NCBI GenBank assembly: GCA_930980855.1
Contig: CAKNIZ010000001.1
Coordinates: 946 to 64,945, forward strand
Reading direction: 5' to 3'
Origin: an uncultured Clostridium sp.
Lineage (GTDB): Bacteria > Bacillota > Clostridia > TANB77 > CAG-508
DNA length: 64,000 bases
Shown: piece by piece, positions 29,416 through 29,773 of the stretch
How positions within the stretch are numbered: position 1 is the first letter of the stretch
Layout of the letters: every line of letters begins with the position of its first letter
The notes under the pieces: generated by a model
Databases searched by the model: none
The model's input: the letters and a program-made list of their open reading frames with translations, nothing else
What the model was told of the DNA's origin: nothing
Position numbers and translations under genes: made by a program

Positions 29416-29461
29416 ACAATACTCATCTGAGATTGAAGGGCTTTCTCCTTCTTGTGTATCT

Positions 29462-29608
29462 AAGTGCGGCACCACCGAGCACCACACGGAAACTGTTGTT
29501 GTTGTTGCCATTGCCATTGTTGTTGTTCGAGTTGAACACGCCTGCATTGGAACCATTATTGTAATTGCCTCCACGTTTGAAGAACGGATTGCTCGAGTTT
29601 AAGAAGTT
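29462..29608 (-). repeat. DGR template repeat (TR)
   Basis: 147 nt aligned to 29777-29923. On the minus strand it reads as AAC/AAT-rich codons (NFLNSSNPFFKRGGNYNNGSNAGVFNSNNNNGNGNNNNSFRVVLGGAAL). It has 44 adenines, and 27 of them differ in the VR. No non-adenine differences. Confidence 0.93.
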
Positions 29609-29626
29609 ACAGTTTAATCCCTCATT

Positions 29627-29658
29627 AGCCAATAAAGCAAATGCTTTATTGGCTAATG
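29627..29658. other. Perfect 15-bp palindrome between VR and TR
   Basis: ttagccaataaagca aa tgctttattggctaa. It lies 18 nt 5' of the TR on the minus strand and about 115 nt 3' of the VR stop codon. Not followed by a U-tract. Confidence 0.8.
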
Positions 29659-29773
29659 TTATGTTTACCTTACTTTTTGCTTATTTGATATTATGTCTAC
29701 TTTTTATCTTTTTCTTTTGACATTATTCTTCGCCTATTTTTATGTTTTTTGGAAAGGGGTCTGGGCACAAGTT

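Follow-up and report, generated by a model that had tools for sequence, protein, structure and literature searches.

Loss of a conserved TR RNA module in an inverted DGR of gut Clostridia

One of the closest known systems is the DGR RNA of Bordetella phage BPP-1, avd-TR-Sp, which contains a template:primer duplex, a cPRT Stop duplex and an Avd-binding stem-loop (PMC6182149; bioRxiv 10.1101/2023.10.23.563531). Priming of the cDNA takes place in cis from A56 of Sp (PMC6182149). In this phage, the loss of even 20 nt of the 3' spacer abolishes cDNA synthesis, as does the loss of the upstream strand of the stop duplex, and Handa et al. predicted such duplexes in the DGRs of Bacillota (PMC6182149; bioRxiv 10.1101/2023.10.23.563531). 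Structured RNAs named RT-1 to RT-19, RT-14 among them, were reported by Weinberg et al. 2017 (PMC5737381). One of these motifs, RT-10, is located in the spacer between TR and RT of BPP-1, and the authors speculated that other RT motifs serve DGRs (PMC5737381).

DGRs with an opposite-strand or 'inverted' layout were described as group 4 by Schillinger et al. 2012 in BMC Genomics (PMC3521204) and by Wu 2018 (PMC5758913). In the collection of Wu et al. 2018 (PMC5758913), 16 DGRs contain MSL, and the combination of MSL and avd is designated as architecture D. In the following, these systems are compared with a locus from an uncultured Clostridium sp. The term window refers to the whole 64-kb stretch of DNA that was analysed.

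An inverted DGR of the MSL-Avd-RT type

The locus is a chromosomal DGR of the MSL-Avd-RT type in a gut Clostridia lineage. Its genes and repeats are the following:

27542-27958, plus strand: MSL accessory gene, 138 aa, MutS domain I-like (Pfam PF01624, MutS_I, E=6.5e-15)
27968-28345, plus strand: Avd accessory gene, 125 aa, bAvd-like (Pfam PF22296, E=6.5e-21)
28318-29415, plus strand: DGR RT (Pfam RVT_1) with YMDD and IGNYTSQ motifs
29462-29607, minus strand: TR, from the TR/VR repeat comparison
29659-29776, minus strand: spacer between the VR and the TR unit, containing the target stop codon
29777-29922, minus strand: VR, at the 3' end of the target gene
29774-31456, minus strand: target gene, 560 aa, with weak Ig-like matches and a VR-encoded C-terminus
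31883-31911, minus strand: predicted strong sigma-70-like promoter 5' of the target gene, TTGACA-17-TAAAAT, 11/12 consensus matches

The start codon of the RT is probably the ATG at 28330, resulting in a protein of 361 aa, and its IGNYTSQ motif is presumably typical of DGRs. RT homologues are located in loci bearing TR and VR. Of 80 relatives, 76 have an MSL homologue 5' of the RT, and all 80 have Avd. The target gene has paralogues inside the 64-kb window.

TR and VR form a direct repeat of 146 nt with 26 mismatches, all 26 of which are at TR adenines if the repeat is read on the minus strand. The changes from TR to VR comprise 18 A>G, 7 A>T and 1 A>C, and there are zero non-adenine differences. 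The final 35 nt of TR and VR, which represent the IMH region, are identical and GC-rich, and the VR is the 3' end of the target ORF, whose stop codon is at 29774-29776. The features expected of a DGR are present, namely an adenine-specific TR/VR pair, an adjacent RT, a VR with IMH at the 3' end of the target, and Avd. Diversification of the VR at adenines is found as well, based on population evidence from strains and not on an experiment. The initial annotation, made from the window alone, had assigned the variable adenines to the minus strand and the RT, avd and MutS-like genes to the plus strand, and both assignments are confirmed. It had also given a distance of 46 nt between the RT stop codon (29413-29415) and the 3' end of the TR, and this distance is correct. 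A second TR copy that explains the VR better, named there as an argument against this assignment, was not found, as the 64-kb window contains no further copy of TR or VR.

The RT operon is located on the plus strand, and the target, VR and TR are located on the minus strand and converge on the RT. This arrangement had been taken as a departure from the canonical layout. However, it is a published DGR type (PMC3521204, PMC5758913) and the norm in this RT clade. A TR opposite to the RT is an already catalogued layout and not a new one. Among the relatives with a detectable TR/VR, the TR is antisense to and downstream of the RT in 46 of 50. The RNA domain described below is antisense to the RT in 65 of the 69 loci having it and is always encoded on the TR strand, including the four co-oriented loci. 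As in the inverted DGRs of Schillinger et al. [quoted passage not shown] In contrast to these three inverted DGRs, which are gamma-proteobacterial, the locus belongs to a large clade of gut Clostridia, most members of which have an inverted layout as a rule. The copy in the window additionally has a deletion of 204 nt. The gene content corresponds to architecture D of Wu et al. (PMC5758913), since the RT is preceded by genes for a small MutS-domain-I protein and Avd; PF01624 was detected in the 138-aa protein upstream of avd.

The structured TR RNA of the relatives and its truncation in the window

In the relatives, the TR is predicted from sequence comparison to be the middle part of a structured RNA on the minus strand. 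Its elements are, in this order, a 5' box, the TR, the hairpins hp1 and hp2, a primer-like strand complementary to the 3' end of the TR and a second strand that pairs with the 5' box across the TR. These are followed by the helices P2 and P3 (RT-14-like distal domain) and a terminator common with the RT gene. In the window, only some of these elements are kept, and they end at a deletion junction:

29609-29622, minus strand: 5' box AGGGAUUAAACUGU, 14 nt, at the 5' edge of the TR, found in 39/39 loci
29455-29464, minus strand: template-side strand CUUAGAUACA at the 3' boundary of the TR
29435-29451, minus strand: short stem-loop hp1, at a conserved position 5-10 nt past the TR
29397-29431, minus strand: conserved stem-loop hp2 3' of the TR, loop UCAAGG, corresponding to the first hairpin of Rfam RT-14
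29393-29396, minus strand: deletion junction, from pairwise alignments with the related loci L087 and L093

In the relatives, the 5' box AGGGAUUAAACUGU forms a helix of 11 bp with a strand downstream of the TR, and CUUAGAUACA pairs with a downstream UGUAUCAAAG strand. Both partner strands are deleted in the window. The first of these helices, which brackets the TR, has 11/11 pairs in 38/38 relatives, with compensatory changes at two positions. The helix at the 3' end of the TR has 9 of 10 pairs plus a conserved C.A mismatch, and compensatory changes were found in L023, L029/L031/L041 and L080. If both long-range helices are considered jointly, double changes occur at five pairs, a count that was matched in none of 500 shuffles, and 98 % of the cells are paired compared to 31-53 % with the partner slid by 1-3 columns. 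Compensatory changes were further observed in 7 of the 8 pairs of hp2 (36 sequences) and in 15 of the 22 pairs of the distal domain. A GGAUUU/AAAUCC pseudoknot in the distal domain was also considered, and the variants seen give no support for it. Since the covarying structure of the relatives, with its compensatory changes and invariant G:U pairs around the TR, is possible on the TR-sense strand only, the functional TR RNA should be a minus-strand transcript. The initial annotation had postulated this orientation, and it is borne out by the relatives.

The region from hp2 to P3 in the relatives covers the whole Rfam model RT-14 (RF02921) on the TR strand. The scores of 43.5 and 38.5 bits are below the gathering threshold of 48.1, so the domain is a divergent relative of RT-14 at best. 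Several TR-RNA units per locus are possible in the relatives, with four in L017 and eight in L032.

The arrangement 3' of the TR resembles that of BPP-1, with one or more stem-loops and two adjacent strands, the first complementary to the TR 3' end and the second to the sequence just 5' of the TR, followed by a stem-loop, an A-rich stretch and further helices. The duplex bracketing the TR has a length of 11 bp in BPP-1 and in the relatives. Based on this order of elements and on the covariation, we infer that the helix at the 3' end of the TR may be equivalent to the template:primer duplex and the bracketing helix to the cPRT Stop duplex. Nevertheless, the sequences are unrelated, the RNA of the relatives is encoded opposite to the RT gene, and its upstream duplex strand is located in the 3' UTR of the target instead of avd.

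A deletion in the lineage of the window took everything from just past hp2 to the last RT codons. In comparison to L093, with an RT identity of at least 90 %, the window has one clean gap of 204 nt, and in comparison to L087, with an RT identity of 80 %, it has 4 nt in place of a stretch of 208 nt. The flanks of the deletion are about 90 % or more identical. In L093, the missing 204 nt contain a linker, the primer-like strand, the partner strand of the box, P2, P3 and the bidirectional terminator. It is because of this deletion that the TR is only 46 nt away from the RT stop codon and that the RT ORF ends in hp2, which now includes the final six RT codons (NSQYCP) and the TGA stop, with the stop codon in its loop. 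The initial annotation had noted that the sequence 3' of the TR runs antisense into the end of the RT. This is true, since hp2 covers the RT end, but it is not intrinsic to the layout and results from the lineage-specific deletion. The new part of the locus is the 46-nt gap, which results from the deletion of a conserved TR RNA module.

The loss is also reflected by the clade RNA model R1, which scores 123 bits in L087, L088 and L093 and stays at noise level in the window and in L081, L082 and L089-L091. A copy of the distal domain elsewhere in the 64-kb window was not found, the best R1 match with filters off having 16 bits (E=0.27). A search with Rfam yielded no match at E<=1 near the DGR and none at E<=0.5 in the whole window, and RT-14 (RF02921) has no match in the window. 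The deletion junction is present in at least six independent assemblies, samples with the deletion being ERZ28574184, ERZ4883060, ERZ1643247, ERZ27349973 and ERZ2916132, and RT proteins with the deletion-type NSQYCP tail are encoded on dozens of contigs. An exact-match scan of JGI metagenome contigs with the 3' flank of the TR resulted in zero matches.

Substitutes for the lost strands were not found in the window. The best duplex of the 5' box with sequence downstream of the TR has -8.2 kcal/mol compared to a shuffle mean of -9.8 kcal/mol, and the consensus duplex of the relatives has -14.1 kcal/mol. Candidate replacements for the primer strand at the TR 3' end were no better than shuffles (p=0.32). 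A match of AGUUGUAAUUUU to the box partner was rejected; this stretch represents the opposite strand of the ancestral RT tail (LKENY), which is also present in P0002 and P0149. The MFE fold encloses the TR in a long purine/pyrimidine helix, which was regarded as compositional, with 14 % of the dinucleotide shuffles equalling it. The window has neither a template:primer duplex nor a cPRT Stop duplex of the BPP-1 type. The primer-like and stop strands are missing together with the distal helices, and in BPP-1 such a loss abolishes cDNA synthesis. Given the effects of the deletions in Bordetella phage, a truncated RNA like that of the window would be expected to be dead.

The palindrome at the 5' edge of the TR unit

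A further element of the window is located upstream of the 5' box:

29623-29658, no strand assigned: palindrome with perfect 17-nt arms (29623-29639 and 29642-29658)

The palindrome can form a stem of 16 bp with a 4-nt loop (about -24 kcal/mol, 33 % G+C) and is among the two longest hairpins of the window, while block-shuffled windows have about 0.5 hairpins with stems of at least 11 bp. It lies 15 nt from the boundary of the TR/VR homology and 118 nt from the VR, and it directly adjoins the 14-nt box at 29609-29622. The initial annotation had described it as a perfect palindrome of 15 bp without a U-tract on the minus strand. It is real, and its minus-strand tail AGGGAUUAAAC has no U-tract, but it is slightly larger than described. 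The statement that it is not a terminator holds for the minus strand only. On the plus strand, the 16-bp stem is followed by the T-rich tail TTATGTTTAC and was scored as terminator-like by the scan. The palindrome is lineage-specific and not a conserved DGR element. The survey for its conservation that had been proposed showed that it is absent from the relatives, and the closest undeleted relative, L093, carries an unrelated hairpin of 11-12 bp at most 6 nt from the 5' box.

The palindrome could act as an RNA element of the TR transcript and not as a terminator, for example as a stabilising stem-loop at the 5' end, as a site of RNA processing or as a roadblock to cDNA synthesis at the 5' edge of the TR in place of the lost stop-duplex partner. 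The absence of a spacer between palindrome and 5' box, the absence of a minus-strand U-tract, the unrelated hairpin in L093 and the presence of a hairpin of some kind no more than 20 nt 5' of the box in around 10 of 39 loci are in line with such a role. It is nonetheless rather unlikely, as neither the sequence nor the presence of the palindrome is conserved, many relatives have promoter-like sequence at this position, the long AT-rich perfect palindromes at the RT stop of the relatives are predicted bidirectional terminators, and the plus strand has the T-rich tail. Far less probable still is that the palindrome serves the recognition of the target site in mutagenic homing, be it as a DNA cruciform, as proposed in the initial annotation, or as a hairpin. 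Wu et al. (PMC5758913) report that an inverted repeat downstream of the VR promotes homing in DGRs, e.g. in Bordetella phage. However, this known element is GC-rich, directly follows the IMH of the VR and is absent from the TR, setting the VR apart from it, whereas the palindrome has 33 % G+C, is located 118 nt from the VR, touches the TR unit and is absent from relatives. In L005, L010 and L023, it is the VR that is followed, at a distance of up to about 40 nt, by a GC-rich hairpin.

Apparent diversification after the deletion and its possible explanations

Four strains bearing the deletion have four VR alleles on near-identical backgrounds. In L089, all 14 VR differences are at TR-adenine positions, and the other 1534 nt of the gene have one SNP. 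The corresponding numbers are 9 of 10 differences in L090 and 23 of 25 in L091. In the IMH region, the VR alleles keep the non-adenine bases of the window type and not those of L093. Since the deletion is common to the four strains and their VR alleles differ, adenine mutagenesis seems to have continued after the deletion. In this case, the lost module would be dispensable here, or another priming route would take its place, or a different part of the genome would supply it. In principle, VR alleles could also have moved between strains by recombination. The apparent diversification after the deletion conflicts with what is known from Bordetella phage.

Several observations were excluded from this comparison. 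The identical VR of the window, L081 and L082 was not accepted as a sign of inactivity, because they differ by 1 SNP in 9 kb and are the same strain. The 572-aa 'target genes' abutting the RT in L081 and L089 are assemblies in which TR and VR are collapsed. L092, with a target protein identity of 89 % (about 93 % at the nucleotide level), is uninformative; its VR differs from this TR at many non-adenine positions, which means that L092 uses another TR.

The reading we prefer, with a probability of roughly 65 %, is that of an inverted DGR whose relatives have a structured TR RNA, that lost 204 nt of it in this lineage and in which mutagenesis continued afterwards. The TR RNA of the window would then mainly originate from read-through from the promoter of the target gene across the palindrome, which has no U-tract on that strand. 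Such read-through had been suggested in the initial annotation and is plausible, as the promoter scan found no sigma-70-like site on the minus strand between VR and TR. L093 has a promoter-like site in this spacer, and its counterpart in the window is degraded. The promoter at 31883-31911 is a candidate for the origin of the read-through RNA. The RT operon, having lost its terminator, is probably transcribed antisense through the TR and would end at the palindrome with its T-rich tail on that strand, or partly at the antisense of hp1, which has a weak terminator-like score on the plus strand.

How mutagenesis could proceed after the loss is a matter of more tentative explanations. The truncated TR RNA might be self-sufficient, so that mutagenised cDNA and homing into the VR would be achieved by a different priming route without the primer strand, the strand of the stop duplex and the RT-14-like domain; we consider this less likely than not. 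A candidate for such a route was created by the deletion itself, since the convergent RT mRNA, with its terminator lost, may run antisense into the 3' flank of the TR. An RT mRNA ending at the antisense of hp1 (29435-29461) would place an annealed 3'-OH right at the boundary of the TR, and the 17-bp palindrome at the 5' edge of the TR could serve as the stop.

Alternatively, the local TR RNA may be defective, with the function provided in trans from elsewhere in the genome, either by another TR-RNA unit that is intact and has an identical TR or by a separate RNA carrying the primer and stop strands and pairing with the 5' box and the TR 3' end that were kept. The intact 5' box and template-side strand, the multiple TR-RNA units per locus in relatives such as L017 (four) and L032 (eight) and the target-gene paralogues in the window are consistent with this explanation. 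It is doubtful, though, as the distal domain is absent from the 64-kb window (R1, filters off) and from conspecific contigs, a second TR is absent from the window, and priming in Bordetella phage occurs in cis (PMC6182149). Even less likely is that the deletion killed the DGR and left a fossil, with VR alleles that are older or were acquired from undeleted relatives and linked to the deletion via homologous recombination. The lost segment does hold the counterparts of the elements essential in Bordetella phage, substitute pairing partners were not found in cis, and the undeleted L093 and the deleted L091 come from the same run of ENA sample accessions. Against this stand the four VR alleles on near-identical backgrounds with the deletion only about 360 bp from the VR, and the fact that these alleles vary almost only at TR adenines and have the non-adenine bases of the window type, not of L093. 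In addition, the MSL, Avd and RT ORFs are intact in L081, L082 and L089-L091, all full-length members of the RT cluster have the deletion-type tail, and TR and VR of the window have zero non-adenine differences.

The comparison of the relatives provides a covariation-backed comparative DGR RNA model for a very large clade of DGRs from human and animal gut Clostridia. Through this model, RT-14, an orphan motif of Rfam, is linked to a role in DGRs. The model also indicates that the logic known from Bordetella phage, a template:primer-like helix followed by a helix bracketing the TR, holds even if the RNA is antisense to the RT. The locus in the window is a naturally occurring deletion mutant lacking exactly these elements. 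It is widespread in metagenomes, and its VR appears to have kept changing at adenines. If continued mutagenesis does not hold true, the locus would be a dated and clean example of DGR decay. If it does, the cis-priming RNA architecture would not be universally required and a minimal or alternative priming mechanism would exist, which would bear on the mechanism of DGRs and on the engineering of compact DGR-based mutagenesis tools.

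Cassette layout in the window and in related loci

The diversity-generating retroelement (DGR) of the window comprises the following features.

27542-27958, plus strand: gene of the MutS-like accessory protein MSL, a MutS-domain-I protein of 138 aa (domain match)
27968-28345, plus strand: gene of a bAvd-like protein (domain match)
28318-29415, plus strand: reverse transcriptase (RT) gene with YMDD and IGNYTSQ motifs
29462-29607, minus strand: template repeat (TR), one copy of a 146-nt direct repeat with adenine-specific mismatches
29777-29922, minus strand: variable repeat (VR), the second copy of the 146-nt repeat
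31456-29774, minus strand: target ORF, carrying the VR at its 3' end

The two copies are 82% identical over 146 nt, and all 26 mismatches are located at TR adenines read on the minus strand (18 A>G, 7 A>T and 1 A>C, with zero others), which is why the copy at 29462-29607 was assigned as the TR. The initial annotation was correct in placing the variable adenines on the minus strand and the MSL, Avd and RT genes on the plus strand, and a re-reading of the coordinates gave the same distance of 46 nt between the RT stop and the TR. A second TR copy, which it had raised as an objection, was searched for; no further TR or VR copy was found within the 64-kb window.

The reported opposite-strand position of the TR is not unusual. 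"Inverted" DGRs, in which TR, VR and target occupy the strand opposite to the RT, are already known (Schillinger et al. 2012, PMC3521204; Wu et al. 2018, PMC5758913), and this architecture is standard for the clade. Among 80 loci encoding RT relatives with 58-73% identity, all from uncultured gut Clostridia, Avd was present in 80, MSL in 76, and an adenine-specific TR/VR pair was detectable in 50. In 46 of these 50 loci, as in the window, the TR follows the RT in antisense orientation, and in four the two are co-oriented. In the window, 46 nt separate RT and TR, whereas none of the relatives has a gap below 174 nt and their median is about 290 nt. The peculiar trait of the window is thus the RT-TR spacing and not the orientation.

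Several further observations concern the cassette and its surroundings. Parts of the target gene and of the region upstream of it have paralogues with 65-96% identity at 65-750, 1755-2304 and 41638-42186; the leftmost of these extends beyond the window edge and may include its own VR. One TR adenine is polymorphic among strains (position 29600, plus-strand T in the window, C in L090 and L091). In the MSL gene, 30 SNPs relative to strain L091, which is about 99% identical elsewhere, are crowded into about 170 nt (27724-27892), which suggests a recombination tract in this accessory gene. In two public assemblies (L081:5094-6812 and L089:3001-4719), the TR is collapsed onto the VR with a loss of 315 nt, creating a false target ORF of 572 aa that seemingly abuts the RT gene, a pitfall for automated DGR annotation.

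Other repeats in the window include a family of about 50-110 nt with at least six copies (CGTTCAAACGAGTCGGAAGGATTCC...CGACCGCAAGGAACAAGAAA...; 6161-6276, 13441-13487, 15541-15621, 23185-23279, 46866-46912 and 58609-58703) and no Rfam match. Six 36-nt tandem repeats are located within a YhgA-like (Transposase_31) gene (32816-33087), where L089 differs densely from the window, also by indels. Just downstream of a mutS2-like gene lies an inverted repeat whose 42-nt arms are 93% complementary (35632-35748); its weak match to a microRNA family was rejected as spurious.

The conserved template RNA of the relatives

A common set of elements on the TR-sense (minus) strand, listed here in 5' to 3' order, is found in each of the 38 relatives whose inverted layout is compact.

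5' box AGGGAUUAAACUGU, immediately 5' of the TR
hp1, a short hairpin 5-10 nt 3' of the TR
hp2, a 9-bp hairpin with the loop UYAAGG/UUACGG, after hp1
variable linker, after hp2
near-invariant stretch UGUAUCAAAGAAGUUUAAUUCC, after the linker
stem-loop P2, then an A-rich stretch, then the longer helix P3, after UGUAUCAAAGAAGUUUAAUUCC

In many relatives, the RT stop is then marked by an AT-rich perfect palindrome resembling a bidirectional terminator. Covariation supports the shared structure well: compensatory changes affect 15 of 22 pairs in P2 and P3 and 7 of 8 pairs in hp2. A helix between the 5' box and AGUUUAAUUCC spans the whole TR; each of the 38 relatives forms 11 of 11 pairs, A:U>G:C changes affect two positions, in six loci altogether, and wobble intermediates occur as well. 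The TR 3' boundary CUUCGAUACA pairs with UGUAUCAAAG at 9 of 10 positions; the C.A mismatch is conserved, and L023, L029/L031/L041 and L080 show compensatory changes. For both long-range helices jointly, 98% of cells are paired, shifting the partner by 1-3 columns lowers this to 31-53%, and the double changes at five pairs were matched by 0 of 500 shuffles. Since invariant G:U pairs assign the structure to the minus-strand RNA, the claim that the functional TR RNA is a minus-strand transcript is supported.

The clade covariance model of the distal domain, R1, scored 39-137 bits in relatives, always directly 3' of the TR and on its strand, including the four loci with a co-oriented TR. The domain is antisense to the RT in 65 of the 69 loci that have it. 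The region from hp2 to P3 gave full-length, sub-threshold matches to the Rfam motif RT-14 (43.5 and 38.5 bits, threshold 48.1), which belongs to the RT-associated motifs described by Weinberg et al. 2017 (PMC5737381); these authors located RT-10 in the TR-RT spacer of the Bordetella phage BPP-1 and guessed a DGR role for other RT motifs.

Complete tandem TR-RNA units, each with 5' box, TR, hp1, hp2 and distal domain, occur behind a single RT in L032 (eight units, 3337-8128) and L017 (four units, 7111-10600), with TRs differing mutually at many positions. To our knowledge, such multi-TR arrays have not been described previously.

The BPP-1 spacer RNA, located 3' of the TR, pairs with the TR 3' end in a template:primer duplex, and Sp A56 serves as the priming site (PMC6182149; bioRxiv 10.1101/2023.10.23.563531). 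An adjoining 11-bp "cPRT Stop" duplex pairs with sequence just upstream of the TR and is followed by a short stem-loop, adenosines and more RT-binding helices, while Avd binds to stem-loops located shortly after the TR; Handa et al. predict equivalent duplexes in 207 DGRs, including Bacillota (bioRxiv 10.1101/2023.10.23.563531). The order of elements is identical in the clade RNA. Based on this order and on covariation, hp2 would be the Avd-binding stem-loop, UGUAUCAAAG the primer strand and AGUUUAAUUCC the stop-duplex strand.

A 204-nt deletion and its transcriptional context

The window retains the 5' box (29609-29622), the TR, the template-side strand, hp1 (29435-29451) and hp2 (29397-29431). 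Past the hp2-closing GAGAG, it goes directly into the antisense of the last RT codons. In the whole window, the distal domain was not found (R1 with filters off, best 16 bits), nor were GTATCAAAGAAGTTTAATTCC at up to three mismatches or RT-14 with the Rfam model. Neither for the TR 3' end nor for the 5' box was a replacement partner found in cis.

The nearest relatives, L087 (RT 80% identical), L088 (78%) and L093 (same 90% RT cluster), have the full arrangement, with an R1 score of 123 bits and a terminator hairpin overlapping the RT stop. Alignment with L093 shows a single clean 204-nt gap between ...ACUGAGAG(U/C)UGU and AAUUUUCUUUUAA..., with nearly identical flanks (hp1 and hp2 on one side, the RT tail on the other); in the alignment with L087, 4 nt take the place of a 208-nt stretch. 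The RT C-terminus, ...LKENFR* in undeleted relatives, reads ...LKENYNSQYCP* in the window, where the ORF enters hp2 by six codons and ends with a TGA within the hp2 loop. Because of this deletion and the altered tail, the 46-nt gap and the RT/hp2 overlap are derived. The described run of the TR 3' flank into the antisense of the RT end is therefore real but not a trait of the layout. Lost in the deletion were the linker, primer-like strand, box partner, P2, P3 and shared terminator. An identical junction occurs in at least six independent assemblies, and RT proteins with the deletion-type tail are encoded on dozens of contigs.

The perfect 15-bp palindrome of the initial annotation exists but is larger, with 17-nt perfect arms (29623-29658, about -24 kcal/mol). 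It is among the two longest hairpins in 64 kb; shuffled sequence yields about 0.5 hairpins with a stem of at least 11 bp. It is the same in near-identical strains, which is uninformative, and missing from more distant relatives, so it is not conserved across the clade. A hairpin within 20 nt 5' of the box occurs in about 10 of 39 loci, window included. L093 has an unrelated 11-12-bp hairpin at most 6 nt from the box. In front of this hairpin is a promoter-like site (GTGTCA-18-TATAAT with TG), degraded in the window; other relatives have good sigma-70-like promoters there, e.g. TTGACA-17-TATAAT in L053.

That the palindrome is not a terminator holds for the minus strand, where it lacks a U-tract and leads directly into AGGGAUUAAAC, but not for the plus strand, where a T-rich tail makes it terminator-like by scan. 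The antisense of hp1 is a weak terminator-like site on the plus strand. As the deletion took the terminator of the RT operon, the palindrome is now the nearest strong terminator-like structure past the RT. RT-operon transcripts would cross the TR in antisense and then stop at the palindrome, and target-gene transcripts from a strong promoter-like site (31911-31883) would read through it into the TR. Alternatively, the palindrome may be a 5' stem of the TR RNA or a cDNA roadblock. The suggested cruciform for target recognition is very unlikely, as position, composition and lack of conservation do not fit.

In relatives, the first 70 nt or so after the VR (e.g. L042:7753-7680) contain conserved blocks, CCCTTTTATTCGGCAC ... 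AAAATACGGG, a candidate terminator, promoter or target-recognition element; they are degenerate in the window (29776-29700). L005 and L010 have a GC-rich hairpin and T-tract in this region. In the VR-TR spacer of about ten loci (e.g. L018, L019, L053 and L073), a GC-rich hairpin recurs about 90-100 nt after the VR and at variable distance to the TR; its loop is of the GNRA type (GGGTGC-GTAA-GCACCC).

Probable diversification of the VR after the deletion

In BPP-1, loss of the upstream strand abolishes cDNA synthesis, as does a 20-nt loss at the spacer 3' end (PMC6182149; bioRxiv 10.1101/2023.10.23.563531). By these rules, the truncated element is expected to be dead. However, several members of the 90%-identity cluster of the target protein are near-identical outside the VR and divergent inside it. 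Three strains collinear with the window over the deletion junction, all without an R1 domain, were compared.

VR differences between deletion-carrying strains and the window
L089: 14 differences, 14 at TR-adenine positions; background 1 SNP in the other 1534 nt of the gene
L090: 10 differences including a 3-nt indel, 9 at TR-adenine positions; background 16 differences in about 5.5 kb
L091: 25 differences, 23 at TR-adenine positions; background about 1%

These alleles are not TR/VR assembly chimeras, because their new bases often match neither the TR nor the window VR. The most parsimonious reading of these population data, with a probability of roughly 65-75%, is that adenine mutagenesis went on after the deletion. 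Old VR alleles could instead have been recombined onto the deletion background; the IMH region (the conserved 3' end of the VR) of the three alleles keeps window-type non-adenine bases and has none of the L093 type, which argues against import from undeleted relatives. The missing function could also be supplied in trans by a second unit elsewhere in the genome, although a second TR/VR is absent from the 64-kb window, or priming could take a different route.

The real oddity of this cassette is thus the 204-nt deletion, which deprives the TR RNA of parts regarded as essential, yet the VR of the lineage probably kept diversifying. Autonomous function of the truncated RNA, if true, would be of high significance.
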